Of a stretch of DNA of 64,000 nucleotides, positions 22,843 to 54,791 are shown piece by piece. The notes under the pieces are model-generated. The model did no database searches, was not told the DNA's origin, and was given only the letters and a program-made list of their open reading frames with translations. The DNA is from a virus, in the IMG/VR virus record IMGVR_UViG_3300037264_003124, positions 6,443 to 70,442 of that record; one strand, written 5' to 3'. The position numbers and the translations under genes are program-made. The stretch's first letter is position 1; each line of letters starts with the position of its first letter.

Positions 22843-23925
22843 ATGAGCAGATTCATTCTAGCGTTTCTGGTTGGCCTGTCGACGGCGGCCGGGCAGGACT
22901 TGAGCATTGAATCCAGGGACTATCTCACATTCGGCGAACGTCCAGGAATGTTTAACGGGTTCCGGCCGGGAGTAGGCATTGCGATTGCGGAGGGATGGAA
23001 AGTATGGCGAGGCGGTCAATCAATCGAGCTTCCATTCCCTGAAGTCGAAGAGGAAAAGTGGTTTTGGAATCGAGCATGGGCTCAATTCTCCGTCCCTGAA
23101 TTGCAAGGGAGCATTAGTTCTGCTGTCTTGCGACTTCCATTGAGCGGTCGCACAAATGGACGTCCGCAGATGTCCGAACAAGTTGACCTCGTTTTGCACG
23201 ATGTGACCCTGTGGCCACCGGAAGGATACTCAAGGTCGCCGTTTCCTACAGACGAAGAACTCGCAAACAAAATCGCGACATGGCATGACTTTGGAAACGG
23301 AATGTTTTACGGAATGCGAGATTTTTCACCAGACATACTGACGCCGTATTGGAGTCAGCATGTACCATCTTCTGGAACTGGGTCTGATGGAACGTTCCTG
23401 CCGTATTACACTTCGCCTCCGAACTACGGGATTGTGAGTGGCGACTCACTGCCGTTTGAAAGCTGGATGTTTCACGGCCTTGGAGAGAATTACGACGATT
23501 TTTATCACGACTTCCGCCTTAGTCCCGCTGCCGTTCGGGACATCGCGAATTCTTCAATGAGCTCCTGGATGATTGGTGCAATGTTGTCGCCGCCTACTTC
23601 CCTGACCGAAGGCGAGCAGCCCTACAGCCTGAATGAATACGCCGCAGTTTACGCCAATGAATACCCGCTGATCCTCGACCTCACCTACGGCCCGCCCCCT
23701 CCCCTCGGCGACTTCTCCGGCAACGGCCGCGTGGACCAAAGCGACCTTGACTTCGTGCTGCTGAACTGGGGAATCTTCGACCAAGAGGAGCTAGACGCCG
23801 TGCTGATGACCTGGGGCGATGGCGGGCTAGCGGCGGCCAGTGTGCCGGAGCCGGCGGGCGTTTGGATTGCGGCGGTGGTTGTTATAATTGCGGCGTACTT
23901 CAGGAGACGGGAATGCCCACACTAG
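22843..23925 (+). CDS. Secreted PEP-CTERM protein with a dockerin/EF-hand-like motif
   Basis: Signal peptide; GDFSGNGRVDQSDLDFVLLNWG; C-terminal VPEP, TM helix, RRR. Confidence 0.85.
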   Translation: MSRFILAFLVGLSTAAGQDLSIESRDYLTFGERPGMFNGFRPGVGIAIAEGWKVWRGGQSIELPFPEVEEEKWFWNRAWAQFSVPELQGSISSAVLRLPLSGRTNGRPQMSEQVDLVLHDVTLWPPEGYSRSPFPTDEELANKIATWHDFGNGMFYGMRDFSPDILTPYWSQHVPSSGTGSDGTFLPYYTSPPNYGIVSGDSLPFESWMFHGLGENYDDFYHDFRLSPAAVRDIANSSMSSWMIGAMLSPPTSLTEGEQPYSLNEYAAVYANEYPLILDLTYGPPPPLGDFSGNGRVDQSDLDFVLLNWGIFDQEELDAVLMTWGDGGLAAASVPEPAGVWIAAVVVIIAAYFRRRECPH

Positions 23926-25433
23926 CCGAACGCCTTCACTTGGAATTCAGCCGCCATACGGTGCAGCGGTACGCACGGGCGCTGTCGGCTGAATTCTCCC
24001 GCCGGCAACCAATTCGCTACGGCTGGGAAAAAGTGACGTTCAACGAAGATGACCACCCTCGCGACGACGAAGGAAAGTTTACTTCGTCCGGCACGTCTGG
24101 CCACAAGAGCCTGAAGGCCGACGATATTTACACGGTCAACGACATTGAGAATATAGGCCTGTATCGCAGCTTGGTGAAGGACTTCCGACAGAATGGATGG
24201 AAGGGCCGCCCAGTTCTTGTAGTGGACATTGGCGACGGGCGTTTTCAGGCACTTACGGGAAGCCACCGTGTTATTGTCGCTCAGGAAGTCGGTATTGAAG
24301 TGCCGTCGATGGTGATTGCTGGCCAGATGGCCAAGGAAGCTGCCGAGTTGCTGTTCGTTGGCGACGAAGAGAAAGTAGCCGGATTGAGAAAGCTCGGCTT
24401 GGACTCGGAAGCGGACTTAATGGAACAAGAGAATGCGGTTCAGCACTATTCACGTCGTCTCTCCTCAGAGTTTGCGCGCCGTTCGCCGCATCGCTACGCC
24501 AAGTTTGTCGAGATCGAACATCCAAGGGATGAGGATGGGAAGTTTGCGGATGGTGGCGGATCGTCCAGTACGCAAAGCTGGTCCGGCGTCGAGTGGAAAA
24601 GCCACACGGAGACAAGCAAGACCGGCAAGACTCGTGAGACAAAGCTAGCTACGCTACCGGACGGCAAGCCGCTGCCGGAGCATATCGCCAAGCTACGTAT
24701 CCCGCCAGCGTGGACGAATGTCCGCGTGAATCTCCACCCGGCGGCAGACCTCGTGGCAACTGGAGTCGACGCCAAGGGCCGCAAGCAGGCAATCTACTCG
24801 GCGAACCACGCTACCCGACAAGCGGCGCTCAAGTTCTCTCGCATCCGCGAGCTACAACAAAAGTTTAGCGGCATCCTGCAAGAGAATTCCCAGAATCGTG
24901 CGTCCAACAAAGAGGCGGCCGACGTGACGCTGCTTATTGCGACAACTGGTTTGCGCCCTGGATCGGAACGAGATACGAAGGCCGAGAAGCAGGCCCACGG
25001 CGCGACTACGCTACTCGGCAGACACGTCGTCATCGATGGCGACAACGTGCGGTTGGAATTCGTTGGCAAGAAGGGAGTTGACCTGTCGATTCCGATTCAC
25101 GATCCGCAGGTGAAGGCAATCTTGCGCGAGCGGATGAATCGTGTAGGACCGAACGGGAAGTTGTTCGGAATCACCGATGGACAGCTTCGCGATTACGTCC
25201 ATTCTCTTGACGGCGGGGCGTTTAAGCCCAAGGACCTGCGGACCCACAAAGGCACGTCGCTGGCCGCCACCGAAGTTCGGGAGATCAAGACATTGCCCAA
25301 GAACGAGAAAGAGTACAAGGCAATCGTCCGCCAGATTGCGACGAAGGTATCTACCGCCCTTGGCAACACCCCTGCCATCGCGCTGCAGAGCTACATTGAT
25401 CCAACTGTATTCGCAAAGCTGAGGGCCGCATGA
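23913..25433 (+). CDS. ParB/Srx-like domain plus DNA topoisomerase IB fusion with HPRD..GKF linkers
   Basis: GWKGRPVLV...LTGSHR (ParB/Srx). IPPAWT, GVDAKGRKQ.IY, GLRPGSE, GKKG, KDLRT, LGNT and SYIDP give the TopoIB catalytic set. Confidence 0.9.
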   Translation: MPTLAERLHLEFSRHTVQRYARALSAEFSRRQPIRYGWEKVTFNEDDHPRDDEGKFTSSGTSGHKSLKADDIYTVNDIENIGLYRSLVKDFRQNGWKGRPVLVVDIGDGRFQALTGSHRVIVAQEVGIEVPSMVIAGQMAKEAAELLFVGDEEKVAGLRKLGLDSEADLMEQENAVQHYSRRLSSEFARRSPHRYAKFVEIEHPRDEDGKFADGGGSSSTQSWSGVEWKSHTETSKTGKTRETKLATLPDGKPLPEHIAKLRIPPAWTNVRVNLHPAADLVATGVDAKGRKQAIYSANHATRQAALKFSRIRELQQKFSGILQENSQNRASNKEAADVTLLIATTGLRPGSERDTKAEKQAHGATTLLGRHVVIDGDNVRLEFVGKKGVDLSIPIHDPQVKAILRERMNRVGPNGKLFGITDGQLRDYVHSLDGGAFKPKDLRTHKGTSLAATEVREIKTLPKNEKEYKAIVRQIATKVSTALGNTPAIALQSYIDPTVFAKLRAA

Positions 25434-25603
25434 GCGACAAAGACCCATTCAATACCGGGGCGGACGTGACGTTTCCACGCGACGCGGGCGATTGGCGCAA
25501 GGACGTCAAGGACGACGACCCAGATGACGAGGAGATTGAAACGCCGGCGGACGTAAAGGCGATTCTTGGATTCGACCCGCGCGAATTGAACGATGCAAAT
25601 TGA
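25430..25603 (+). CDS. Small acidic protein coupled to TopoIB (absent from the ORF track)
   Basis: 57 aa, MSDKDPF...DWRKDVKDDDPDDEEIETPADVKAILGFDPRELNDAN; ATGA overlap with the topoisomerase stop. Confidence 0.65.
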   Translation: MSDKDPFNTGADVTFPRDAGDWRKDVKDDDPDDEEIETPADVKAILGFDPRELNDAN

Positions 25604-26306
25604 GATCGTGACTCACAGTTTCGGCCCCTTCTACTTTCGCCTGCTGGATCAACAACTTCGCTCGCTCGACACAATCCCCAACGCCGCCGCGACTGTCTTC
25701 GTCTGGAAGGAGGACATGCTTTTGATTCCTGCGATCATGGGCGGAGTCATTCCACCTGGCGTCTGGTGTCCGCTCGGCAAGCCACAGCTACTCAACCGCA
25801 CAATCGGCCGCAACATGGCCGCGAAGGCAACCACGGCCGATTGGATCTGGTTCACCGACGCCGATTACCTCTTCGGACCAGGCAGCCTCGAATCGCTGGC
25901 CAACCTTGACCCGCACACGGCGTGCATGTACTACCCGCGTAGGATCATGCGGCCGGCGGCTACCGACTATTTCGAAGACTTGGCAAACGACGTGAACCCG
26001 ATGGAACGCTGCACCGTGGCCCATAGGACGCCCTACGCTATCGGCGGCGCTCAGATAGTCCCAGGCCACATTGCCCGTCAGTGGGGCTACCTGGACGGCG
26101 TGCGGCGTTACCAGCAGCCTGCGACGGGCGACAAGTTCTTAGACACTCGCGGCGATGCGGCATATCGGGTTTGGCTAGCCAAGAAAACGGGACTGCCGAC
26201 TATATCGGCAGACATTCCTAACGTCTTCAGACTACGGCACCGGATACCGGAGACGAGCGCGCGGAATCACCTTCTGCCGATGGTGCCAGCCCCGGCGATA
26301 TCCTGA
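25593..26306 (+). CDS. GT2-like glycosyltransferase
   Basis: GRNMAAKATTADWIWFTDADY. Confidence 0.75.
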   Translation: MQIEIVTHSFGPFYFRLLDQQLRSLDTIPNAAATVFVWKEDMLLIPAIMGGVIPPGVWCPLGKPQLLNRTIGRNMAAKATTADWIWFTDADYLFGPGSLESLANLDPHTACMYYPRRIMRPAATDYFEDLANDVNPMERCTVAHRTPYAIGGAQIVPGHIARQWGYLDGVRRYQQPATGDKFLDTRGDAAYRVWLAKKTGLPTISADIPNVFRLRHRIPETSARNHLLPMVPAPAIS

Positions 26307-26631
26307 CAATATCCGACTCGTCGATTTCGTGGCCTGGCAGGGCGTAGTAAGTCTCGATGCCCTCCGTATCTTCCAGGAATACAAACCGATGCGAATGCGT
26401 GGTAATTCGCAAGACATGGCAACTTCCCGGATAAAGTTCAATGTCGTCGTCGATGGTTTCACCAATAACCAGTCTCAGGAGACCTATGCGAACGAACGTA
26501 TCCTGACGCATCCACCTATGGTAATGCGTCGATGATTCCCCACATTTCATCCCCCTGAACCCCACGACCCACACGCTCTTGTCTCGGTAGATCGTCCAGG
26601 ACTCTCCCCACAGGTGTCGGTTGCCGATCAT
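26227..26631 (-). CDS. Hypothetical protein (possible cupin-like)
   Basis: Coupled to the phosphatase gene; STHYHRW motif. Its 3' end overlaps the convergent GT gene. Confidence 0.45.
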   Translation of the reverse strand: MIGNRHLWGESWTIYRDKSVWVVGFRGMKCGESSTHYHRWMRQDTFVRIGLLRLVIGETIDDDIELYPGSCHVLRITTHSHRFVFLEDTEGIETYYALPGHEIDESDIVRISPGLAPSAEGDSARSSPVSGAVV

Positions 26632-27119
26632 GATCCGCTCGACTCCTCGTCGTATTGATCCACTGACCATTCCCCCATAATGTCCATGGATGAATGGTAA
26701 TAATTTCTTCCCCTCGCTAAACCAGGCACAAGTTGCAAGGCCCTAGCGTGCAATTTCTGAAGGTCATTCATGCCACGTCCCGCAAGCTCCCAGGCAGCAA
26801 TAATCGCCGACGTTGGGCCGCGATGCCCGCCTAGTTGGCAATGCGTGAGAATCGGGAGCTTTTTGGACTGGAACGCTATATGGACTACCTGGCATAAGGC
26901 GGACATGTAGTGAGCGTCCACGTCTTCCCGGTCCTTTTTGGACAGTCGGAAATACAGAACGTGGTGCGGAAGCTCCTTCAACTTTGACCAGTACACGTCT
27001 CGTCCATGCCGTGGGCTGAAGTGGTGAGCGATGTTGATAATGGTCCCGACTTTTCCGATGCACTCGAATGGAGCTTCCCAGTTGCCGAACCAAACTTGTT
27101 CGGTCAGCTTGTGGATCAT
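26628..27119 (-). CDS. Dual-specificity/PTP-like phosphatase
   Basis: CX5R loop ILTHCQLGGHRGPT; QVWFGN and IINIA N-terminal motifs. Confidence 0.8.
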   Translation of the reverse strand: MIHKLTEQVWFGNWEAPFECIGKVGTIINIAHHFSPRHGRDVYWSKLKELPHHVLYFRLSKKDREDVDAHYMSALCQVVHIAFQSKKLPILTHCQLGGHRGPTSAIIAAWELAGRGMNDLQKLHARALQLVPGLARGRNYYHSSMDIMGEWSVDQYDEESSGS

Positions 27120-27811
27120 ACAGGCACTCCTAGTTTCCGCGCCGTCTCCGTCAGAAACGCCCGGCTGCGGTTGGGTATCGGGCTGTGCAGCACGAACGGC
27201 TGGCCGCCCGTCGTGAGGTTGGTCAGGCGGCCGTTTTCGATGCGGGCTAGATTGCGGGCCTTTTTCCATTGCCCGGCACAGCACCAAAAGAGGTCGCAGT
27301 TGTAGTCAATGTCCACCATCTGGACTGCACAAGCCGACGATAGGAACCACTGTTCATTTCTGTGAAAATCGTTCTTCATTGCACGGCAGTTCATGTCCTC
27401 GAACAACAGCCGCACGTCATGTACTTTTCCAACAAATGAACCACCGTTCGGGTAGCGGTAAATTGAATCTCCGCCATGACGTTTCGCTAGTTCGTCAAAA
27501 TGCGGTTGCAAACACGGGTCGCGTTTGCGGAACCATTTCTCGCCGGCGTATGTGATACTTTTTGTCCTAATTGGGACAGGTCGTGGGTCACGTAGGTAGA
27601 TGCAGTCATGGGCATCCGTGCAAACTAGAATCTCGTCGTGGGCAAGTGGCTGAAAACAGAGCCACTCATAGAGCCACTCAATCTTACTCACCCCGCCGCG
27701 ATACTCCTTGCCGATCCCAATCGGCTCGACCTCAATCCCAAAGTTCCGGGCCGACGCGAACAACAGCTCGCTCCGCTCGTCAATCTTGTTGCACCACGTC
27801 ATAAAACGCAT
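27116..27811 (-). CDS. PLOD/procollagen-glycosyltransferase-like GT-A protein
   Basis: L..SA..FGI....IG.G..Y.G...KI, ILVCTDAHD, YAGEK, YRYPNGGSFVG, IDY.C.LF. Confidence 0.75.
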   Translation of the reverse strand: MRFMTWCNKIDERSELLFASARNFGIEVEPIGIGKEYRGGVSKIEWLYEWLCFQPLAHDEILVCTDAHDCIYLRDPRPVPIRTKSITYAGEKWFRKRDPCLQPHFDELAKRHGGDSIYRYPNGGSFVGKVHDVRLLFEDMNCRAMKNDFHRNEQWFLSSACAVQMVDIDYNCDLFWCCAGQWKKARNLARIENGRLTNLTTGGQPFVLHSPIPNRSRAFLTETARKLGVPV

Positions 27812-27815
27812 ATGG

Positions 27816-28169
27816 CTACAGCAGGCGTTGCCCCTCGATTGGTAGCGGGACGGATAGTGCGTTCTCGAATTCCCTCTCCATCTCCACCTTGTCGCGGCCA
27901 CGCCGAATGAGGCCCGATAGCTCGCTTGGGCATTTCAGCAGGTCCTCTGCCGGCAAGTCCTGGAATCGCATGTAGGTGTTGAAGCCGCCTTCGCCAAGAT
28001 GGTCGAGCCGCGCTACGAAGATGCAGTATCGGCCCGCGGCCAGGGCCTTGTAGACGGCATCTTCCGGGCTCTTGATGCCGCTCTCCTCATTTGGCGACGA
28101 GGTCGTCAACTTCGTACCATCCAAAGGTATCGAGTCGTGTGGGGAAGGAAGAGATGCTGTTGACGTCAT
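27816..28169 (-). CDS. Hypothetical protein (start uncertain)
   Basis: Fills the gap within the operon. Confidence 0.4.
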   Translation of the reverse strand: MTSTASLPSPHDSIPLDGTKLTTSSPNEESGIKSPEDAVYKALAAGRYCIFVARLDHLGEGGFNTYMRFQDLPAEDLLKCPSELSGLIRRGRDKVEMEREFENALSVPLPIEGQRLL

Positions 28170-42386: not shown

Positions 42387-42893
42387 TTACCTCCCCAGCG
42401 GCAGCCGCTGCGAACGGGCCGGGTAGAAGTGACCGCCTAGCCTGTCTGGAATCCAGTTTCCGTAGAGCTTATAGTCGAGCGCCGAAAGACCATCGTGGAA
42501 CACCACGCCCGCGTTCTTGTTGGCGTCGATGTTAAAGACCCTCTCGCCTTTCCGCAGCCGGTCGAGATATTCTTCGGCACGCTGGTGAATCGGGTGGTCC
42601 GCGTCCTTGAACTTCTCCGGCCGGGCCTGAATCAGATAGGACAGGGTAATCTCACAGCAAATACGCCGCAGACCGTGCCTGTCGCTGCCGCTTAATGCTG
42701 CCAAGTCAACAGGCAAATACATCCGCCCAGTCTGGCAGGCCATGTCAATCGCGGCTGTAGCGTCCTGCAAGGCCGTTTCCATGCGGTCGCTGGACGACAG
42801 ATTCGTCTCGGCAGTCCCATCGTCGCGACAGAGGTCCTTGAGGGTCCTCTCGTCGAAACGATGCGTCATTTGCTCGACATCCGCGTAAGGCAT
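42387..42893 (-). CDS. Head-tail adaptor (Mu gp36/DUF1320-like)
   Basis: YAD...M..RF....L..L, AL.DA.A.ID, Y.P, L..ICC.I, A..YL..L..G. Confidence 0.8.
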   Translation of the reverse strand: MPYADVEQMTHRFDERTLKDLCRDDGTAETNLSSSDRMETALQDATAAIDMACQTGRMYLPVDLAALSGSDRHGLRRICCEITLSYLIQARPEKFKDADHPIHQRAEEYLDRLRKGERVFNIDANKNAGVVFHDGLSALDYKLYGNWIPDRLGGHFYPARSQRLPLGR

Positions 42894-44525: not shown

Positions 44526-46727
44526 TTAAGCAGCCGCGCCGTTGGTGATCTTTTGCAACTCCTGTTCATACCAGCCAGTGGTATCCGTCGTTGGAGGTGC
44601 ATTTCGAGTGCGAGCCATGACGGCCTTGTACGCCCGGTCCTGATCTTCCTTGCTGTACTTCTCCGTCTCGCCACTCTTCGTGCCGGGCCGATGCCGTGAG
44701 TACCGCTCTACGCCTTCAACGTATGGCAAGTCGAGATTCAACGGAGCACGCGGCGTGTTTTCCAGAAGAGCGTCAACGAACCCGTCGAATTGCGAGTCGT
44801 CACGCATCTTGGAATAGCACAGCCGCTCCATCATCTTGTCCGGGTCGAGAACGTAGCCCTCATGATGGAGCTGCAACAGGCGAGCGCGGCGGTTGGCGTC
44901 GGTCTTCTCCTGATAGCGGGACTGCGACTCCGATTCGAGTTTCGCGACCCTGGCCTTTAGTGCGTCACGCTCGTACTTGAGCGTCTCGTTCTCTCCCGAT
45001 GATCTACTGTGTGCCATCTTTTCAGACTCCTTGCGTGGCGGGCCTCCTGTGCCTTCCTGGATCGTGTGCTCACTTCCCTTGACGCCTTCCGCCTCATTGG
45101 CTGTCTGGTCATAGGTGCCGGCCTCGGCGTCTGGCTGATCGTCGCCGTCGACGTGGCTTTCGGCGGCATAGCTCCGCTTCTTGCGGCCAGCCATGTACTG
45201 GGTCAGCTCCTCGTCCTCCATCGCGTCTAGCGCCGCGTAACAGGCTTTCTGATACGCCATATCCTTCTCCTTGTTCTTGTCAGGTGGTTCTTGAGGTGGG
45301 TCGCCGCCAGGCGCGTCAAGTCCTGGATCACCACCGGGTGCGCCAAGCCCACCGCCTTTCACTTGTGGCGGTGCCGGTGCAGTGGCCGCGGCTTGTGGAG
45401 GTGCCGCCGGCATCGCCCCCGCAGGTGGAATAGGATTCTCGGCTGGAGGCGGTGCGGCGGCGGCTACGGCGGGCGGTGGTGCGGCCCCTGGCGGTGCTCC
45501 CGCTGCTGGAGGTGCACCTGGAGCTACAGGCGTTGGCGGAGTTACCCCAGGCTGTTCAGCACCCTGCCCTTGCATCATCTGGGATTCCAGGAACTGCCAC
45601 TGCGGCAACTGCTGGATGGCGTCCACGATGCGGGCCAGGTCTTGGTCATCGAGCATCAGGTCGCCCTCCGCTTCGTAGTTTTCGGTGATTCCAAGTCCTG
45701 AATTGGCAATGGAAAGTCGCCTGAATTCCTGGTAGTACTCGTCAACGGAAGCTGCTGGCGGAACGCTTTTGGTAACATGTCCTAAAATCTCCACCTTCTG
45801 GGCAGGAGATTGGGAATCAAACCACTTTTCCGCCTGACCGGGAATTCTTCCGGTAGCCAATGCATGCTCTATCGCTTCAGACGCAGCTTTGAGACTGAAA
45901 GAGTCTTCTTGTGAAAGACCAAAGTCTCCGGGGTCTCTTGTCAGCGTCCTTAAAAAGGATTGTGTTTGTTGAGAACTGAGCTTCTTTTCTTTCCCGTTGG
46001 CCCATTCCTTCAAAATCGATACCAGCCACTTCCCTTTATCCGGGGATTTACCAATTGGTTTTTCTTTTGATGACGTGGACGCCCCGCACGTATTTCCTGC
46101 TTTGAATCCCCCATCTCCAGTCCCGCAGTTGTCTGCCGCGTAGTCTTTCTGTGGAATATGCACATTCCCCGGACCCTCGAAGACCGCCGCGTACTTCTCG
46201 ACCAGCTTGCCGGGGTGCACGCGCGAATAGACCAGCCCCATGTCCAGCCGCGGAACTTCCGCCCCCAATAATGCAATCGGGTCCAGGAACATCTCGTCGT
46301 AGGTATCCTCGACCCACAGTTCCGGGCTGCGGCGGGCAATGTACTTCTGCGCCTCTTCCCACTCTGAGCGGCGAACGTGAAAGTCGGCCGTGATGGCGTA
46401 CCGCTCTCGCCCCATCTCGCCCGACATTGACGCCACTCGAAAGGGACCGGCAAAACCGACCGCCTTCAATGGCGGCAGGCCGGAACCGGCCGGTGGCGTA
46501 TGGCCAATCGACAGGGCCGCATAGTCGCCCGTCTCGGCGATCCGGCGGTTGCAGCGATTGGCTACCGCCTCCAGCTCCGTCCGGCCGAACCTCAGAGTGC
46601 GACCGTCTTTGGTAGTCGTCTCGTGCTCCGCGAATACAGGCACGTCCCGAATCGACACGAACTGGTCCGGCGGAAACGGATTGCTGGCCGTTTGTGCGGG
46701 TTCGGTGGCGTTGGGAAATGCAACCAA
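44526..46727 (-). CDS. Mu-like prohead protease/scaffold polyprotein with an inserted domain
   Basis: IGHT, VGF, RRSPEL and IALLGAEVP protease motifs; Pro/Ala linker; coiled-coil scaffold at the C-terminus. Confidence 0.75.
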   Translation of the reverse strand: MVAFPNATEPAQTASNPFPPDQFVSIRDVPVFAEHETTTKDGRTLRFGRTELEAVANRCNRRIAETGDYAALSIGHTPPAGSGLPPLKAVGFAGPFRVASMSGEMGRERYAITADFHVRRSEWEEAQKYIARRSPELWVEDTYDEMFLDPIALLGAEVPRLDMGLVYSRVHPGKLVEKYAAVFEGPGNVHIPQKDYAADNCGTGDGGFKAGNTCGASTSSKEKPIGKSPDKGKWLVSILKEWANGKEKKLSSQQTQSFLRTLTRDPGDFGLSQEDSFSLKAASEAIEHALATGRIPGQAEKWFDSQSPAQKVEILGHVTKSVPPAASVDEYYQEFRRLSIANSGLGITENYEAEGDLMLDDQDLARIVDAIQQLPQWQFLESQMMQGQGAEQPGVTPPTPVAPGAPPAAGAPPGAAPPPAVAAAAPPPAENPIPPAGAMPAAPPQAAATAPAPPQVKGGGLGAPGGDPGLDAPGGDPPQEPPDKNKEKDMAYQKACYAALDAMEDEELTQYMAGRKKRSYAAESHVDGDDQPDAEAGTYDQTANEAEGVKGSEHTIQEGTGGPPRKESEKMAHSRSSGENETLKYERDALKARVAKLESESQSRYQEKTDANRRARLLQLHHEGYVLDPDKMMERLCYSKMRDDSQFDGFVDALLENTPRAPLNLDLPYVEGVERYSRHRPGTKSGETEKYSKEDQDRAYKAVMARTRNAPPTTDTTGWYEQELQKITNGAAA

Positions 46728-46792: not shown

Positions 46793-47014
46793 TCACGAAT
46801 CCACCACGCGGCTTTCAGTCCGCGTCTCGGTTGCAGGTTTGAACCGCGTGTAGTGGTCCCCGACCTGGCCGGATTCGAGCGGAACCGCAACAAAGAGGGT
46901 TCCGCTTAGCCCCTTGGACTCGGCTGAGTACAAGAGGTTTTTGAGGGTCTTCAGGCAAGCGTGTATCTGCTTGCCGTTGGACTCTCTTCCTGGATTCTTA
47001 GCATGTTGCGGCAT
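46793..47014 (-). CDS. Hypothetical protein
   Basis: Coupled small ORF. Confidence 0.4.
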   Translation of the reverse strand: MPQHAKNPGRESNGKQIHACLKTLKNLLYSAESKGLSGTLFVAVPLESGQVGDHYTRFKPATETRTESRVVDS

Positions 47015-47726
47015 GGCTGTCAACAGGTTTTGTACCGCTCTTCTTGACCCACCGTTCAAAACTGGCCTCCCCGTAGCGGCTGATCATCTCCCGCCGCTCC
47101 TCGTTCACGGCCTCGGAAATGGCGGGGTCTCGCATCTGGTGTTTGAACGCATGGCTATTGACGTGCTCGATCTTCACGTTGCCCGTCACGCCCACCTTGA
47201 ATCCGGCCTGATGGCAGCGAATCCAGTAATCCTGATCGCTGTACCGCCAATTTAGCGTTTCATCCCAGAGGCCAACTTTGTCGATGACGCGGCGCGGAAG
47301 ATAGAAACACGCCCCCCACGCCCGATCCTTGTGGATTCCGGGTCCGATATTCAGGTGGTTGTCGTCGCAGCACATGACGCCTCCGGCCATGTCGGCGTCG
47401 CGGACCAACGTATCGAGCCAGCCCTTGGGGACGACCGTGTCGCTGTTGAGCTGGACGACGTCACCTTGTACGAGATATAAACCTATATTGAATGCCTTCG
47501 TAAACCCAAGTGGTTTTACCGAGGCGTGAGATTGGGTGAAGAACGATACAAGGCGATCTGCCAAACGGCAGCGAAATTCTATGGGGTTGAATCCATTCGC
47601 CACCACCACCCGCTCGCCGAACTTGCACAGCCCATCCGCGTCCGCCTCCAAGCTGTCCAGGCAGCGGTGCACCACGGCCTCTCCGCCGGGCGGAACGTAG
47701 ATCGGCATGATGAGGCTAATGGTCAC
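46998..47726 (-). CDS. GT2 glycosyltransferase
   Basis: SLIMPIY, CLDSL, GFTKAFNIG, LNSDT, GLWDE....YSDQDY..R...AG. Confidence 0.9.
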   Translation of the reverse strand: MTISLIMPIYVPPGGEAVVHRCLDSLEADADGLCKFGERVVVANGFNPIEFRCRLADRLVSFFTQSHASVKPLGFTKAFNIGLYLVQGDVVQLNSDTVVPKGWLDTLVRDADMAGGVMCCDDNHLNIGPGIHKDRAWGACFYLPRRVIDKVGLWDETLNWRYSDQDYWIRCHQAGFKVGVTGNVKIEHVNSHAFKHQMRDPAISEAVNEERREMISRYGEASFERWVKKSGTKPVDSHAATC

Positions 47727-48571
47727 CCTTCGTCTCCAAAGAACCTCCCACTCGCCGCCAAGCTGCACCCCGTCGTCGATTCAAGCTGTTCCGTACCAGC
47801 CAAATCCCGAACGGACGTCTCAAAATCCACAGTCGTAGGGTAGTCCGAAAACTGGCACACCTGCCTATCAACTTCACCGCCCGCTCGCGGCACGTAGTCA
47901 ATCGGACAGTCGAACATCTCCGCCACTTCGCGGATACTGCGGCCGTGGCAAGATCCAATCTCGGTAATGCCATCCCGGTCAGCCGCTGCAACAATCGCCC
48001 GCACGGCGTCCGTGTAGTGGATAAAGTCCCGCACTTGGCTTCCATCGCCGGTGACAGTGATGCGGCCCTTGGTGCGTTTCTGGTCCATGAACGATGGGAT
48101 GACGTTGCCGCTGGATGGCTTGTGGCGGGGCGAGCCGTAGACGCAATGCAACCGGATAATCGAGGTTGATATTCCGAAATAGCTAGTGTAGTGTTCGCAG
48201 TACCGCTCCCCGGCGTATTTCTCGATGGCATAGGGGAGCGTTCTTGTGTAATGGACGATGGCCGAAGATACGAAGACCATCTTCGCCTTTCGCTCCTTGC
48301 AGAACTCCAGACATTCGACTGTCAGATTTGCGCCATTGTTCAAAGATTCTGCCGGATGCTCAGTAGCCTTTCGCACGCTTGCTTGCGCCGCTAAGTGAAA
48401 GACTACGTCGGATTCAATCTCCATGTCCACCGTCAGATTGGCGACATCCAAGCAGCGCACGCCGTGTTTGTGCAGAATGTCGACCGAGCATACATCATGC
48501 CCTTGCTCCACCAGCAGGTCGCAGACGTGGCTGCCAATGTGTCCGGCTCCGCCGGTGACGAGACACTTCAT
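47723..48571 (-). CDS. NAD-dependent epimerase/dehydratase (extended SDR)
   Basis: VTGGAGHIGS, VFHLAA, YAIEK (YxxxK), VYG, GDGSQVRDFIH. Confidence 0.92.
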   Translation of the reverse strand: MKCLVTGGAGHIGSHVCDLLVEQGHDVCSVDILHKHGVRCLDVANLTVDMEIESDVVFHLAAQASVRKATEHPAESLNNGANLTVECLEFCKERKAKMVFVSSAIVHYTRTLPYAIEKYAGERYCEHYTSYFGISTSIIRLHCVYGSPRHKPSSGNVIPSFMDQKRTKGRITVTGDGSQVRDFIHYTDAVRAIVAAADRDGITEIGSCHGRSIREVAEMFDCPIDYVPRAGGEVDRQVCQFSDYPTTVDFETSVRDLAGTEQLESTTGCSLAASGRFFGDEG

Positions 48572-48693
48572 AGGTCCAGCCAATCAGCCAATTCTGCGAG
48601 TACCAATGGTATTACACCGAATAGTACGAAGAAAAATCCGCACACCAACCCTAGCATCAAACACACTTGCCAGAATTCAATTAGAAAGCTCAT
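48568..48693 (-). CDS. Small membrane protein
   Basis: 41 aa, single hydrophobic helix, ATGA-coupled. Confidence 0.4.
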   Translation of the reverse strand: MSFLIEFWQVCLMLGLVCGFFFVLFGVIPLVLAELADWLDL

Positions 48694-49859
48694 GCGAAAA
48701 ACGGATGGACCCACTCGCCCACCCACTCCTTCTCCTTTTCCTGAATCGCTTCCATCACATTCCACGCCATCAGCACGAATACATCCGCCTCAATCTCTTC
48801 CCGCTTCCGTACAGGCAACTTGCTACCCGGTGCGTACTTGCCCTGCTTGGAAGGCATGTCGTCAATCAGGCACTCCATGAACTCGCCCGCCCCCGTGTAG
48901 TTTAGCATCGTGTTGCCCTTGGCCGGAGCACCGTAGCCCACGATCCGCTTCCCTTCGCCCTTCAAACGATCAAGTCGTCTTCGGAGTCGATTACGCTGGT
49001 CCTCAACTCGGCGAGTGACCTGCTTGTATTGCAGAGGGTGAGTGCGTCTCCGCTCAACGTCAATGTTCTTGTAGTAGTCGTGCTTGTCCGTTCGCTCTCG
49101 CCCCGCAAAGGCCCGCAGCGACGTGCCCTGAACGTCGTGCAACTGGACCTCGCTGATAAACAGTCCGTGCCGCTCGAACAGCGTCGACAACGCCGTGGTT
49201 CCAAACAAGGAAAGATGCTCGTGATAGACAGAATCATACCAGCCTCGCTCCCATAAGTCCTCGGCCCACGGTAGTTCGATGACGGCAATTCCATCGTCCG
49301 TCAGCAACAGCGACATGCCGGCCACGGCGTCATTCAAGTCCTCAATGTGAGCAAAGACGTTGTTGGCCAGAATCGCGTCCGCCCGGCCGTCTCGGGTTTC
49401 AATCTCCCTCGCCACCTGAAGTGACCACAACGCCCTTTGCGTCGGCACGCTCGCTGGAATGTTCTCTGCCGGGTCTATTCCAAGTACCGTGTGATTGCGG
49501 CAGGAGAAGTATTCGAGTAACAGGCCGTCATTTGACCCAATCTCGACAATCGAGACCATGCGACCCGTTGGCAATCGCCGCATCACGTCATCAGCGTACT
49601 TCCGCCAATGCTCGCCAAGCGTGGCAGCTCGTGACGAGTAGATGTAGTCGCTGAAGATTTCCTGGCGGTCCACGACAATCGATAGCTGCAAGTGAATGCA
49701 TGCCGCGCAGAGCATAAGCTCCAACGGATACACAGCCTCGTCTTGTTCGGGAGACGACAGGAACGAATTGGCGAGCGGCTGTTGGCCCAAGTCGAGGACC
49801 TTGGTCAATTCGGTCGAGCCGCAGATGCGACAGGCGGTGGAAGGGGTGAAGGGGATCAT
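48690..49859 (-). CDS. NDP-sugar C-methyltransferase
   Basis: CRICGS, LDLGQQPLANSF, EIGSNDG, YHEHLS, GYGAPAKGNT. Confidence 0.92.
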   Translation of the reverse strand: MIPFTPSTACRICGSTELTKVLDLGQQPLANSFLSSPEQDEAVYPLELMLCAACIHLQLSIVVDRQEIFSDYIYSSRAATLGEHWRKYADDVMRRLPTGRMVSIVEIGSNDGLLLEYFSCRNHTVLGIDPAENIPASVPTQRALWSLQVAREIETRDGRADAILANNVFAHIEDLNDAVAGMSLLLTDDGIAVIELPWAEDLWERGWYDSVYHEHLSLFGTTALSTLFERHGLFISEVQLHDVQGTSLRAFAGRERTDKHDYYKNIDVERRRTHPLQYKQVTRRVEDQRNRLRRRLDRLKGEGKRIVGYGAPAKGNTMLNYTGAGEFMECLIDDMPSKQGKYAPGSKLPVRKREEIEADVFVLMAWNVMEAIQEKEKEWVGEWVHPFFA

Positions 49860-51667
49860 GCGGTATCCCTAGCTGCGGCTTCTAATACTTTTTTGGCCTT
49901 GATATCACTCCGTGGATGTTCGTCCTCATTGAACGCTGCATACCTCTTGCCTGCAAACGCATCCCGCAGCCGCTTCGCAATCCCATTCTCCATCGCCCGC
50001 GGCGCATCCGACCCCAGCACAACACTCCTCTCGCTACGCTCACTCGGCGGACCGTCCGCGTCGTACTCAGCGTTCTCTGGCTGCGCCTCAAGGCCGTGCA
50101 CCATTGCGTTCTTTTCAGGACCACCTGAGTCACCGCCACCGAATCCACCGCCCATCGTTCCCGGCGGCGGCTGAATCGACTTCTGTAGCGCCGCCATGTC
50201 GAGCACCTCCGCGCCAGATTCTGGCACCGGAGTACCCAACAAATCCCGCACGTTTTGCGCATCGATCTTGAGGCCCATGTCGTAGGCCATCTTGATCGCA
50301 TTCAGCCGCGTCTCGGCGTCCGGCGTCTCAGTGTCAATTCGGAAACGGAACCTCGTGTTGGCGTACTGCGGATAATTGAACTGAATCATCGGCAGCAAAA
50401 GGTCCGTCGTAATCGTCTCTTCCAATAGCTGCGCATCGTACCGGACGATTTGCATGAACGTGCCAAGCTGCACCTCGGCCAGGTTGCTGCCGAGCCCCGT
50501 GGCGGACGCCTCGCTGGTAAGCGTTTGGCCCAAGATGTACCGCTTGATCTGGTGGCCGAAATACTCATTGATGACGGCCTTGAGAGACTCTGCGCCGCCC
50601 ATGCCAGGCTCGATATGCTCGACCCGATAGAGGGCCGATTGTTCATCCTGCACCATCGGGAAGAATACAATGTTTCGGCTGCCGCCCGATTCACTCTGCC
50701 GCAAAGCGGCCTTTTCGATTTCCTCTTTTGCCGTGGGGTTGTGCATCGGGTAGTACCAAACATTGAATCCGAACGCACTCCGCTCCAGGTACTCCATCAA
50801 GAGCGACAATGCCTCTTGCTTCTGAATCCACGTCCAATACAGCACACTCCGCAGGCCCTTGCCGTGAATGCGGCCCGCGTTAGTCGGCTCTTCATACTCG
50901 CCGTCCTCGATCTGGTTCTTGTGGATAGCCAGTAGCGGCCGCTCCCACGTGTCGAGAAAATACGCCAGCCCGTAGTCGGTCGGCTGGATCTTGCCCTTCA
51001 TTTGGCCGCGGATGATCGGCAATCCGTCGCCATTCTTGAATGTGGCGTCCTCTTCGTCCTCGCGCTGCCGCTCCCACCGCCTCGCGGAATTCTGCCAACC
51101 CGGATAGGCCATGCCGATGCGGATGCCGACCTGGTCCGGCCTGTACGTCCCCAGTCCGTCGTCATATCGAAAGACGATCTTGTCGCCGTTGACGGGAAGC
51201 CATTGGTCCATGACGATCCGCATCTTGGGACCAACCCGCTTCCACCGCCACTTGTGCTGGATGCCGTACTTGCCGTACCACGTCGCGTGCAACAGGTTCT
51301 CGCGGTATTGCAGGAAGCGGGGGATGTCTTCCAGCATCCGCGTCAACTCCGCAGCCACACCGACTTGTCCCTGGTCCTTTTTGTTCTCCGGCTCGACGTG
51401 CCACTCGAAGAGGCAGCAGGCCCGCTGCCGCATCTCGACGCACTCCATGATGGCCGTGTCGTTACGCATGATGCGGGCATTCTCAAACGATTGCTTGAGC
51501 GCCTCATCGGACGGCCGGTAGACGCGGGCAATCGACGAAACCGTGCCCTGAAACGTGATGGCATGCGGCAGGATGGACTCGCCCATGTTGATAGGCATGC
51601 GCGAGAGGCGTCCTGCCGGATCAAGCGTCGTGTCGTAAAGTGAGAATCCAGGTATCGGCATCTTCAA
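49856..51667 (-). CDS. Portal protein (Mu gp29/DUF935-like)
   Basis: LLHA.WYG, G.GL...LYW.W..K, ILGQTLTS, LAEV; located after the terminase. Confidence 0.85.
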   Translation of the reverse strand: MKMPIPGFSLYDTTLDPAGRLSRMPINMGESILPHAITFQGTVSSIARVYRPSDEALKQSFENARIMRNDTAIMECVEMRQRACCLFEWHVEPENKKDQGQVGVAAELTRMLEDIPRFLQYRENLLHATWYGKYGIQHKWRWKRVGPKMRIVMDQWLPVNGDKIVFRYDDGLGTYRPDQVGIRIGMAYPGWQNSARRWERQREDEEDATFKNGDGLPIIRGQMKGKIQPTDYGLAYFLDTWERPLLAIHKNQIEDGEYEEPTNAGRIHGKGLRSVLYWTWIQKQEALSLLMEYLERSAFGFNVWYYPMHNPTAKEEIEKAALRQSESGGSRNIVFFPMVQDEQSALYRVEHIEPGMGGAESLKAVINEYFGHQIKRYILGQTLTSEASATGLGSNLAEVQLGTFMQIVRYDAQLLEETITTDLLLPMIQFNYPQYANTRFRFRIDTETPDAETRLNAIKMAYDMGLKIDAQNVRDLLGTPVPESGAEVLDMAALQKSIQPPPGTMGGGFGGGDSGGPEKNAMVHGLEAQPENAEYDADGPPSERSERSVVLGSDAPRAMENGIAKRLRDAFAGKRYAAFNEDEHPRSDIKAKKVLEAAARDTA

Positions 51668-52848
51668 CGTCCTCTATTCGGCGTCCCTCTGTTGGGTGTG
51701 CCACGATTCGGCGCACCATCCATCGGAACAATCAGCGGTGCTATCTGCTCCGGCAACGCACTACGCAGCGTCCGCACCTTGCCCGTGCCGACCTTCTGCA
51801 CCCGCACCGTTCGCGGCACAAATAGCTCTTGGCCAGCACCTGCATACGTTGCCTTCCGTGGCACATAGTCATTGCGGATCGCCACCAGCCGGTAGTCGTG
51901 GCGATGGCCACTCCAAGTCCCGCGAATCCGTACATTGTCCCACAGCCAGATGCCTTTCGACGGCGCGTCGTACATCGCCAAAAACTTCTCAGGTTGTACA
52001 TTCGAGTAGGCGTAAAGGCTGCCGGCTCCGCTGCCAAATTGCGGACCCGACCGATAGCGAACGTAGAGCGTGGACGCATCCACGTCGTAGCCGAAAGACC
52101 AGACGTTGGAGGATTCGGCCCGCACCATTTCCTTGGTGATGATTGGGTGATTGGCCGGGAAGCGGCGGCCTGTGCCATCGACCTCGATATCGACGACTTG
52201 TCGCTGCCGACCCGTCGAAGTGGACTTGGGAACACCACCCGGATAAAAAGTCTGCTCCGCGCTTGTGACCGGGTCGTCCTCATCAACTGATACTGGCCGT
52301 CTGGCAGGTGGTGCAATCACCTGATAACCTTCCGCCTCTAGCCTCGCAATCATTGCCTCCATGCTGTCCGCCACGCCGCCAGTTGTCAGCTTTCGAGCAT
52401 CCGGCGAGAGCTTCTCGGGAGCCCACGCTTGCAGTAGTCGCACGGCCGCGTCAATCTCGCCGTCGATACCGCTGCCGCGTGTCTTGGCCCCAGGAGCGAG
52501 CAATGCCTTCAGCAACCGGCCCATCGGCCCCAGCGCCCCCAGCAGCTCCGTAATCAGCCGGGCCGACTCACCTCCGAACGCCTGATACTTGACGACCTCG
52601 CGGACCATGTCTTTGAACGGCATTCCGCTGGACTGGCGGATGAATCCCGCACTGAACCCGTGCCGCGAGTAGCGGTTGAGCATGTCTCCGAAGCGTGCGG
52701 CCGACGATACGACCGTCCGCGGCGTATTGATGGCATCCTTGACGTCGCGGACCAGCTTGTACGCCTCAGTCTGGCGAAACGCCTCCCGCGCCACACGCCT
52801 TTGCTCGCGGTCGAATTCTCGGAACAGCGGGTTGCGGGACCAGGCCAT
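51664..52848 (-). CDS. KTSC-domain protein
   Basis: SSNV.S.GYD....TLYV.Y..G..Y.Y.NV........APSKG; C-terminal PNRG repeats. Confidence 0.75.
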   Translation of the reverse strand: MAWSRNPLFREFDREQRRVAREAFRQTEAYKLVRDVKDAINTPRTVVSSAARFGDMLNRYSRHGFSAGFIRQSSGMPFKDMVREVVKYQAFGGESARLITELLGALGPMGRLLKALLAPGAKTRGSGIDGEIDAAVRLLQAWAPEKLSPDARKLTTGGVADSMEAMIARLEAEGYQVIAPPARRPVSVDEDDPVTSAEQTFYPGGVPKSTSTGRQRQVVDIEVDGTGRRFPANHPIITKEMVRAESSNVWSFGYDVDASTLYVRYRSGPQFGSGAGSLYAYSNVQPEKFLAMYDAPSKGIWLWDNVRIRGTWSGHRHDYRLVAIRNDYVPRKATYAGAGQELFVPRTVRVQKVGTGKVRTLRSALPEQIAPLIVPMDGAPNRGTPNRGTPNRGR

Positions 52849-53111: not shown

Positions 53112-54791
53112 CTACCGTCCATTCCTGGCCAACTGTACGGTGCCGCGTGCGCCGTTGACGTGGCGGTGCATCTGGACTGCGTTTCGTTCTGCATGGCGGT
53201 GCATCTCTTTCGCGTAGCGGGGCGGCTCCCAACCTTCGATCTTCCGCTCACCCATAATCATATACCTCAGAGCGTCCGGTCCGTGGTCGAATCGCGGAAC
53301 TGGTACCGGCCTGGCTAGTCCAGGATTAAGGGCCATCATGTTGGGCTGACCGCGCTTCCAACGATAGGATCGCATTTCGCTTATCAGATGCTTACAACGG
53401 CTCGATATTTTCAAGAGCGGCTGGTCTGTTTCTCGCTGCGGAGTCAGCAGGTGCTTGATGTAGTAAATTCCCTCCAGAACACTATTCTCGCTCTTGTTGT
53501 ATCCGACGGTGGGAACACCGTAGAGGTTGAACTCGCGGATGTTACCCGGTGCCGCCGAGTCCGCATGGTTGACTCGATACCCAGGCCGCATGGTCAGTTC
53601 AATTTCCTTATGCCCACGCTTTCCATGAATAACCGGCCAGTTCCATTGCTCGCACCGGTCAATCGTCTCATTGATGTGGTCCCGCAAAATCTTCGTTTGG
53701 CTGACGGTCCAGTATTCGTCGTAGACGGTCCACGATCCGTCTGCCGGGTCCCAATACGCCCACAGCGTGCAATGGGCATGCTCGCTGGTCCAGCCCCAGT
53801 CCGTGCCCATGGCGTGAATCAGAGAATTGTCACGTAATGCACGGTCCTCGATAAACTGCTCGTCGACCATGTGGATCGCCTCGGAGAAACCAGCATAGAT
53901 CATGCCCTCGAAAACCGCGAAGTCGCCATAGAGCCGCGTCGCGTGCAACTCATCGGGAGTGAAGGCCAGCATCGAATCGATCCAGTCCTGGCCTCCTGGT
54001 AGATTCGGCAGATTCTTCAGCGTGTTGGCCTTATAGACCTTCCAGCTTGGAGGGGCTTTTTCAATCGCCTGCTCCATCTCCGCCGAGAGCCACGGGTCGA
54101 GCGGCGTGAACTCAATCAGCCGTGCCCCGCGATATTTGTAGTCGCGCAGGCCACGAACCGTCTCCGCACAAAGCACTGACGGCGGCGTCTCGCTAATCCA
54201 GAATCCACCCAGCGACGCCCCTTGCAGGGCAGCACGGCCCTGCTCGAAAGTTTTGAACTCAATCACCCAGTTCTTATCCGGGTGACCGCCGCGATCCGTT
54301 GGCCACGATTTCAAGACAACAGCTTTCGGTTGATTGCGGACCTTGTTGTGCCAGACGATTTCCTGAATCTCGCAACCTGGGATGAATCCCATGCCGTGGA
54401 GCTTCTCGCCCCAGCACACGTTGCAAGTGTTCTCGAACGTGTTCGACATCACCCAGAACGGGGTATTGCGACGCGGCGGCGGTTGTTCCATCAGCATAAA
54501 CCGAGCCGCCTTGTACGCCGCCGCCACAGACGTTCCCGCTCCATTGCCGCCAATAAGGAACGCGACACCATCCTTGCTATTGCAAAATGACTCCTGCTGG
54601 TCGGCTCCTCCCGGTGCGTCCAAGTCATCGGGTCGCGGCCTGAAGCTCAACAAGCCATTGTTGCCCAGCGCGTAATCGAGGTACTCCGCAATCGCCGGAT
54701 TGTGCGGAGCGACCTCCATTGCCATCTTCACGAATTCCAGGCTGGCCCACGAGCCAGCCCCGATTGTCTTAATCGCCGCCCTCCGATTCAT
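53112..54791 (-). CDS. terL: Terminase large subunit
   Basis: QQ.F, GGNGAGTS, FTP, RLYGDF...EG.IY, GTDWG, ADSA, DHGPDALRY. Confidence 0.88.
   Translation of the reverse strand: MNRRAAIKTIGAGSWASLEFVKMAMEVAPHNPAIAEYLDYALGNNGLLSFRPRPDDLDAPGGADQQESFCNSKDGVAFLIGGNGAGTSVAAAYKAARFMLMEQPPPRRNTPFWVMSNTFENTCNVCWGEKLHGMGFIPGCEIQEIVWHNKVRNQPKAVVLKSWPTDRGGHPDKNWVIEFKTFEQGRAALQGASLGGFWISETPPSVLCAETVRGLRDYKYRGARLIEFTPLDPWLSAEMEQAIEKAPPSWKVYKANTLKNLPNLPGGQDWIDSMLAFTPDELHATRLYGDFAVFEGMIYAGFSEAIHMVDEQFIEDRALRDNSLIHAMGTDWGWTSEHAHCTLWAYWDPADGSWTVYDEYWTVSQTKILRDHINETIDRCEQWNWPVIHGKRGHKEIELTMRPGYRVNHADSAAPGNIREFNLYGVPTVGYNKSENSVLEGIYYIKHLLTPQRETDQPLLKISSRCKHLISEMRSYRWKRGQPNMMALNPGLARPVPVPRFDHGPDALRYMIMGERKIEGWEPPRYAKEMHRHAERNAVQMHRHVNGARGTVQLARNGR

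Follow-up and report, generated by a model that had tools for sequence, protein, structure and literature searches.

A conserved header peptide before the modules of a phage ParB-like/topoisomerase IB protein: a candidate signal for head cargo

The DNA analysed here (the window) is a stretch of 64,000 nucleotides, bases 6443-70442 of the linear virus record IMGVR_UViG_3300037264_003124, which is 70,442 bp in total and 51% complete according to CheckV. At 23913..25433 on the + strand it contains an open reading frame (ORF) of 506 aa from its ATG (P0001 is the same gene call), in which a short peptide, the header, stands before each of two modules, ie in the order header 1, ParB-like module, header 2, type IB topoisomerase (TopoIB) module. 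Each header core closes a longer leader. Leader 1 (23964-24080) begins with a basic, lineage-specific helix ending in RY (QRYARALSAEFSRRQPIRY, 23964..24020; predicted over residues 2-30 with a predicted local distance difference test score, pLDDT, of 57-65), and continues through header core 1 (FNEDDHPRDDEGKF, 24039..24080) up to the first module at 24081..24440. Leader 2 (24441-24545) also has a lineage-specific helix ending in RY (QHYSRRLSSEFARRSPHRY, 24441..24497; predicted over residues 166-190), followed by header core 2 (FVEIEHPRDEDGKF, 24504..24545) and a Gly/Ser linker (24546-24578). A third, partial copy lies at the end of the portal gene. From the comparisons described below, the header is a selected unit preceding passenger modules that are attached to, or encoded beside, head-interior proteins.

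Residues 223-506 (24579..25430) are firmly assigned, by sequence, to the type IB topoisomerases. Two families were matched above their curated cut-offs, PF01028 (65 bits, cut-off 23.7, E 8.6e-18) and PF21338 (31.3 bits, cut-off 27, E 1.7e-7), and an AlphaFold2 (AF2) model of the module has a pLDDT above 90. In an alignment of 50 TopoIB relatives R348, K386/K387, R443, N485 and Y494 were nearly invariant; these may correspond to the catalytic Arg-Lys-Arg-(His/Asn)-Tyr pentad of the Deinococcus enzyme. The first module, residues 57-176, is a separate unit of ~120 aa, for which a word-indexed search limited to proteins of 278-886 aa returned a single relative, P0114. It had no match in Pfam or NCBIfam, PF02195 included. 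A weak match to Noc chains (E 0.13) extends across the GxxR region (GDGRFQALTGSHRVIVAQ), and one to SbnI, presumably a ParB/Srx-fold protein, was called weaker still (E 0.12). The nearest clusters in the ESM Atlas were ParB_N (PF02195; score 0.96, 26/30 matches), and the AF2 model of the module is of low confidence (pLDDT 30-50). These are leads and not proof, and weakly suggest a ParB N-terminal-like domain. Of the label ParB-TopoIB, given to the protein in a first-pass annotation of the DNA, the second half is thus secure and the first half is provisional; we retain it as a name.

The same annotation had described a similar leader in front of both domains, and this was borne out. The two leaders are 50% identical across 48 aa (pairwise E 1e-14). 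A hidden Markov model (HMM) was built from 44 motif copies in 41 non-window proteins, and all 1434 six-frame pieces of the window were scored with it. The scores were 51.5 bits for leader 2 and 35.0 bits for leader 1, ie both matched significantly a profile to which the window copies had not contributed. The tail of the portal scored 13.2 bits (E 0.002), matching only the N-terminal half of the motif, and the next best piece just 5.2 bits. Translated in six frames, the window has five occurrences of the tetrapeptide [DE]HPR, of which three, all within long ORFs, are the sites named above; in the whole 70-kb record the header motif is found at these three places only. At the DNA level the three copies have a mean column identity of 63%, so the pattern is maintained by selection at the protein level; a recent duplication of the leaders is ruled out by the same figure.

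The portal protein is of the Mu type (49856..51667, - strand; PF06074 E 1e-42; phrog_113; 444 relatives), and its named relatives are in Planctomycetota assemblies. Its tail, RYAAFNEDEHPRS (49907..49945, - strand), corresponds to the N-terminal half of the header, which was also detected at 21 bits (E 3.3e-5), and the C-terminal end reads ...GKRYAAFNEDEHPRSDIKAKKVLEAAARDTA. The portal had been said to end with the leader motif; the first half of the motif is indeed there, ~3 nt from where it had been placed, and the GKF that should complete it is not. In 35/119 portal relatives (42-61% identity), mostly long forms, a header follows the portal core, and behind it the long forms carry InPase, ART-PolyVal, NUDIX, TopoIB, Fic, 2H, PBECR3 or GGCT. 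One of them, P0278, has the portal-ART junction PSENSDRKRLASYAAFREEEHPRSDDGKFTDVGE, with the core part SYAAFREEEHPRSDDGKF. The window tail, which reads PSERSERS...GKRYAAFNEDEHPRSDIKAKK...stop, agrees with this junction up to HPRSD and then diverges, and for that reason is best read from the alignment as a truncated portal-passenger junction, or stump. No remnant of GKF was found downstream in any frame, which rules out a simple frameshift. The six closest unfused portals (P0271-P0274, P0276 and P0277) have no header motif, and no close relatives were found in IMG/VR for the portal or for the N-terminal half of the ParB-TopoIB protein.

Two further features of the portal region were observed. 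A second element, P-S-E-N-S-[DE]-R, lies 15-40 residues upstream of the header in the portal tails of this clade (P0275-P0283); the window version is PSERSERS, at portal residues about 546-553, and the element might be a separate processing or docking site. Directly behind the portal, at 46998-49859 on the - strand and between it and the remaining head module, are a sugar C-methyltransferase (PF08484/PF08421), whose start codon overlaps the portal stop, an NAD-dependent epimerase/dehydratase and a glycosyltransferase-like ORF. In the portal relatives the fused passenger domain occupies the position that these sugar genes have here. Modification of virion or host-surface glycans is a possible function for them.

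The conserved part of the leader is a core of ~20 residues, [WF]-[DN]-E-x-x-H-P-R-D-x-x-G-[KR]-[FW]-x-x-GGG. In a logo of 533 anchored copies, with positions counted from His = 0, W (47%) or F (43%) is found at -5, D (44%) or N (13%) at -4, E (92%) at -3, H (96%) at 0, P and R (both 100%) at +1 and +2, D (59%) at +3, G (97%) at +6, K (47%) or R (30%) at +7, and F (82%) or W (12%) at +8, beyond which the sequence is Gly-rich. Upstream of the core there is only a mild excess of Ala. The first-pass annotation had taken RY...HPRD..GKF as the unit and proposed that it is cut next to the Tyr. Tyr is present at -6..-10 in 50/507 copies from the top-scoring representatives, in 12/55 copies in the TopoIB relatives and in 18/34 copies in relatives of the window portal. 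Since Tyr is scarce beyond the clade of the portal relatives, the RY is a habit of that clade and lies outside the signal; the RY/helix part, an amphipathic helix, is lineage-specific and what is conserved is the core. For the same reason the step of cutting beside Tyr finds no support.

The full-length AF2 model shows both leaders as long helices (residues 2-30 and 166-190); behind each helix come a short turn containing a single cross-strand bridge and a Gly/Ser linker modelled with low confidence, and neither leader packs on the TopoIB module. A separate model of the 45-aa leader, made with the motif alignment, gave residues 31-40 (HPRDDEGKFT) a mean pLDDT of 90. The header core is thus predicted to be a small defined turn tethered by flexible linkers. 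It was represented by no Pfam family that we could find, and a profile search of PDB sequences gave 0 chains with the motif at E<=10. Other proteins have sister forms in the same place before TopoIB, namely F-[DN]-P-[NGD]-Q-[PAE]-R-D-x-x-G-[KRM]-W (eg F-D-P-N-Q-P-R-D-E-x-G-K-W) and F-x-E-x-x-HPRGQPENxGQF, taken from P0015, P0061, P0064, P0067, P0077, P0084, P0098, P0101, P0103 and P0120. As these occupy the same position, the true header family is wider than the profile used. Stretches of the type PRVPAGxxxGGQF, possibly related to the header, were seen close to some N-termini.

A 45-position profile was run on 1.84 billion representative proteins, and matched 3365 of them at E<=0.001 and 347 at E<=1e-10; the former is a lower bound, because single weak copies drop under the threshold. 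The matched proteins were up to 7334 aa long, and up to 20 stretches were matched in a single protein. Copy statistics were taken from 149 of the 150 best matches (P0011 was left out), a ranking that favours multi-copy proteins. Between 2 and 16 copies were present in each of these proteins, 546 altogether, and the median distance from one copy to the next was 259 aa (interquartile range 193-368), which is the length of a domain. A strict peptide pattern found at least 589 stretches in IMG/VR, and a DNA pattern at least 120 stretches in species-representative genomes, where ~17 would be expected by chance from the degeneracy of the pattern. Among the genomes concerned are those of Actinomycetota, Firmicutes, Bacteroidota, Alphaproteobacteria, Planctomycetota, Verrucomicrobiota, Elusimicrobia and Melainabacteria, and the DNA pattern is also present in cultured strains, eg Methylobacterium spp., Schlesneria sp. 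T3-172, Oerskovia enterophila DSM 43852 and Desulfovibrio cuneatus DSM 11391. Searching 50,697 GenBank phages by tblastn with leader 2 gave only noise of 28-30 bits, the method being blind to a motif this short. One viral contig has an array of giant passengers (locus L008, 1763-16078, + strand), in which three ORFs with headers, 2025, 351 and at least 2394 aa long, lie side by side.

Pfam was used to scan 220 motif proteins (62 + 28 top representatives, 56 non-redundant ORFs from 59 IMG/VR loci, and 74 ORFs from bacterial genomes), many of which had no Pfam match at all. The head carriers were Phage_portal_3, Portal_Mu, Phage_portal_2, Phage_portal, Phage_Mu_F and DUF2213, and the passengers were ADP-ribosyltransferases, NUDIX, TopoIB, GNAT, PBECR1/3, LPD1/3/13, Zeta toxin, InPase, RelA/SpoT, 2H, lysozyme and others. 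A portal family was present in 18/56 of the viral ORFs, with four families represented, and in 12/74 of those from bacterial genomes. There were no conjugation families among the Pfam families listed. An HMM of the leader had been proposed earlier as a check on whether its hits are confined to head and cargo proteins; in the proteins with a Pfam match, the families listed are all either phage-head families or effector/polyvalent passengers, as that proposal anticipated.

The position of the copies is strongly biased. In the 149 representatives the first copy was within 40 aa of the N-terminus in 53 cases, compared with 4 in which the last copy was within 40 aa of the C-terminus. The corresponding counts of terminal copies were 22 and 0 in 62 complete viral ORFs, and 39 and 2 in 62 complete ORFs from bacterial genomes. 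The view that a leader goes with the module behind it is therefore upheld in all three sets: the core accompanies its downstream module whether this is fused behind portal, MuF or DUF2213, strung in a giant protein, or alone. Small proteins of 113-250 aa open directly with the header, eg MSEFNEQDHPRD and MFDEDKHPRD, and in two loci examined they lie among head genes. One locus (L034) has the order portal, 147-aa header protein, MuF, and another (L021) the order terminase large subunit (TerL), portal with header, 145-aa header protein, MuF, DUF2213. Of ten small header proteins compared with PHROGs, three matched families of unknown function and seven had no match. One PHROG annotated 'portal protein', phrog_15528, matches the stretch of header core 2 through its positions 653-690.

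The metagenomic relatives of the TopoIB module numbered 289 at E<=0.001. Among the 119 listed, 21 are fused to a portal and 6 to MuF (27 in all), and in the portal-TopoIB fusions the header stands between the two. The pattern HPR-x(2-5)-G-x-[FWY] lies just upstream of TopoIB in 42 of the best 120 relatives listed, the window protein included. In GenBank phages TopoIB was found at E<=1e-5 in 2 of the 50,697 records, those of Bacteroides phage BS162P1 and Burkholderia phage BCSR5; it is thus nearly absent from cultured phages and a common passenger in uncultured ones. The closest relative of the window protein, P0002 (566 aa), has 76% identity to it from the RYAK of leader 2 through to the C-terminus, and leader 1 is also common to both (41% across 61 aa). 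Between these same two leaders P0002 has ART-PolyVal in place of the ParB-like module, ie the passenger modules behave as exchangeable cassettes.

The surroundings of the two genes differ. The window holds, in addition to the portal, the large terminase subunit (53112-54791, - strand; phrog_5653 E 5.8e-16) and a head-tail adaptor (42387-42893, a family match), ie it comes from a phage with a portal-terminase packaging system, as expected for polyvalent proteins. Between terminase and portal, at 51664-52848 on the - strand, is a KTSC-domain protein (PF13619) whose C-terminal end consists of GTPNRGTPNRGTPNRGR repeats, and which occupies roughly the slot expected for a MuF-type head protein. The MuF profile (PF04233) had no match anywhere in the record. 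A 733-aa ORF of the head module (44526..46727, - strand) is possibly a Mu gpI-like protease/scaffold, a lead from language-model neighbours in the ESM Atlas, where 14/30 matches were to clusters with PF10123. The ORF itself had no match in Pfam and PHROG searches, and the PF10123 profile had none anywhere in the record, which weighs against the lead. Processing of the type carried out by T4 gp21, which had been suggested at first, is not supported, this ORF being the only hint of a protease, and cleavage of any kind is likewise unsupported. Many window ORFs had no Pfam or PHROG family match.

The portal and ParB-TopoIB genes are 25 kb apart and on opposite strands, and the neighbours of the latter are glycosyltransferase and methyltransferase genes. 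The ParB-TopoIB gene is flanked by 25593-26306 (+ strand) and 26628-27901 (- strand). Near it are a PTP-like phosphatase (HCQLGGHR; PF14566 E 4.8e-4, under the Pfam cut-off), and a PLOD-type glycosyltransferase (PF25342) together with a GT2. Immediately 5' of the ORF and overlapping its start is a gene for a 360-aa protein (22843-23925, + strand), with a weak PEP-CTERM-like C-terminal anchor (E 0.064) and GDFSGNGRVDQSDLDFVLLNWG repeats that were judged by eye to be dockerin-like. Such a protein is odd for a phage gene and fits a host of the Planctomycetota type.

With two modules and a header before each, ParB-TopoIB belongs as a passenger protein to the polyvalent class anchored by portal or MuF. 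We propose that the header would serve as a handle that recruits passenger modules to the procapsid interior or holds them there, and that it is perhaps also the site at which a passenger separates from its carrier. In that case ParB-TopoIB would be taken into the head as cargo and reach the host cell together with the incoming DNA, on which the topoisomerase and a ParB-type nickase/NTPase could then act. On the same reasoning, the RYAAFNEDEHPRS tail of the portal would be a stump, the passenger behind it having been lost or moved, with the sugar genes now directly downstream. We give an even chance to the reading as a whole, ie that the header is a recruitment or retention handle, and perhaps a release point, and that ParB-TopoIB travels in the head and enters the cell with the genome. 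That the leader directs cargo into the prohead had been suggested at the outset; the carrier families and the TopoIB fusions do link cargo enzymes with the portal, whereas the portal copy on which the suggestion had drawn is truncated.

There are several points against this proposal. No receptor for the header was pinpointed, and neither a prohead protease nor MuF is found by profile in a record that is only half complete. The ParB-TopoIB gene sits outside the head module, and the portal stump may have no function, as the closest unfused portals lack the motif. A targeting signal would be redundant in proteins that are already fused to portals. The packaging of header-bearing proteins remains a prediction, and the motif could be traced to no cultured phage in this analysis. 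Finally, the core is almost invariant over four unrelated portal families and over hosts of many phyla, which would indicate intrinsic chemistry or a universal partner rather than a co-evolving phage receptor, since the latter should drift.

Intrinsic chemistry would suit a header that is a maturation site only, where multi-module proteins are cut by a phage or host protease or by their own chemistry and no targeting is involved. A cleavage site of this sort would recur once per module at intervals of a domain, as the header does, with as many as 20 stretches in a protein; in the fusions the header lies between portal core and passenger, where ejection would need a release, and some of the motif proteins contain the peptidase family PF14550 or DUF2213. 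We nevertheless consider this unlikely, as many stand-alone proteins have the fully conserved motif at residues 2-20, with nothing upstream to remove, the record has no protease by profile, and we know of no self-cleaving motif that resembles the header. The replacement of ParB by ART between conserved leaders in P0002, and the highly variable C-terminal passengers behind a single portal clade, would equally be explained by a passive boundary, a folded cap and Gly linker that insulates domains and marks recombination cassettes, the N-terminal copies being inherited from fission. The predicted compact turn with flexible linkers on either side is consistent with this, and it would parallel the demarcation motifs of polymorphic toxins. 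However, the 533 copies keep H, P, R and G at 96-100%, more than a linker cap would call for, and 63% DNA identity gives the copies little homology for recombination. The strong retention of the header at the N-terminus of stand-alone proteins from many phyla also speaks for selection on the peptide as such, so that a purely passive role seems distinctly improbable.

A header that acts inside the host after delivery, by binding a universal host component or as a modification or degradation signal that localises or times the effectors, would account for the extreme conservation of the core from Actinomycetota to Planctomycetota and Firmicutes and over the four portal families. We regard it as very improbable. 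The dominant signal is that of portal, MuF and DUF2213 carriers and of head-gene neighbourhoods, families of conjugative elements are missing from those listed for the 220 motif proteins, and none of the results hints at a host partner. The proposed handle for head cargo can also be extended to a universal address label, ie a core read by conserved head machinery of tailed phages across phyla and sufficient to load a foreign protein, with TopoIB as a frequent virion enzyme. This stronger form is possible and we hold it tentatively, with more doubt than conviction.

Short peptides with comparable placement are known from other systems. The capsid targeting sequence of the T4 internal proteins and of Alt is reportedly removed by the gp21 prohead protease. 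This signal, confined to T4-like phages, has the cut site L/I-x-E at its end. The header resembles it in being a short peptide N-terminal to a cargo enzyme, but has no likeness to it in sequence, the L/I-x-E site included, spans many phyla and occurs in internal copies, up to 20 per protein; nor does the record have a PF10123 match that would supply the protease. In polymorphic toxins, demarcation motifs such as VENN in CdiA and PxxxxDPxGL in Rhs are short invariant peptides at the border to exchangeable payloads; the header is similarly placed, with the cassette swap of P0002 at such a border. It is unrelated to these motifs in sequence and, unlike them, stands before every module of a protein and at the start of stand-alone proteins. 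The topoisomerase module is like the bacterial/poxvirus-type TopIB in its PF01028 and PF21338 matches and in the conserved Arg, Lys, Arg, Asn and Tyr positions, and differs in being phage-encoded, headed by a cargo motif and, in relatives, fused to portals.

The closest known class is that of the polyvalent proteins, which in the main text of Iyer, Burroughs, Anand, de Souza and Aravind (2017, PMC5512222) are unrelated enzyme domains in one polypeptide, fused to portal or MuF and predicted to be packaged and injected. The header-bearing proteins have the same repertoire as that text describes: ADP-ribosyltransferase, ParB-like, NUDIX, PBECR, 2H, RelA/SpoT, InPase and LPD domains. In the window protein a firm TopoIB is joined to a separate N-terminal module, so it too has more than one domain in one polypeptide; unlike the polyvalent proteins described in PMC5512222, it is not fused to a carrier and is encoded 25 kb from the portal, among glycosyltransferase and methyltransferase genes. 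Fusion to portal or MuF is seen in 27/119 of the TopoIB relatives listed. The searchable main text of PMC5512222 does not contain 'HPR', 'linker' or 'conserved motif', and has 'topoisomerase' once; it thus apparently describes neither a header repeated before each module nor TopoIB in the role of a common passenger. The MuF polymorphic toxins of temperate phages, as presented in the text consulted of Jamet et al. (2017, PMC5576092), have a conserved head-protein carrier and a variable C-terminal effector, and the words 'motif', 'linker' and 'cleav' are absent from that text. MuF-header-passenger proteins of this kind occur among the header matches, whereas the window protein has no MuF domain (PF04233). 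Literature searches with spellings of the header motif, for topoisomerase IB with bacteriophage portal, and for processing of the Mu portal, found nothing relevant. We conclude that this is a known protein class carrying a header signal that is very widespread and apparently undescribed.

Phages are believed to deliver enzymes together with their DNA as a means of blunting host defences. We know of no sequence rule, beyond a few model phages, by which packaged proteins can be recognised. The header is a concrete candidate for such a packaging rule, because it is short and nearly invariant and precedes passengers on four portal families, on MuF and in stand-alone genes of head modules. If it is a loading signal, virion cargo could be annotated across metagenomes, and the peptide would become a means of filling capsids with chosen proteins. 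The virion of vaccinia contains the TopIB of that virus, and if the header should prove to be a universal address label, the phage TopoIB would parallel that packaged poxvirus topoisomerase, and injected effectors would become predictable from sequence alone in thousands of uncultured phages.

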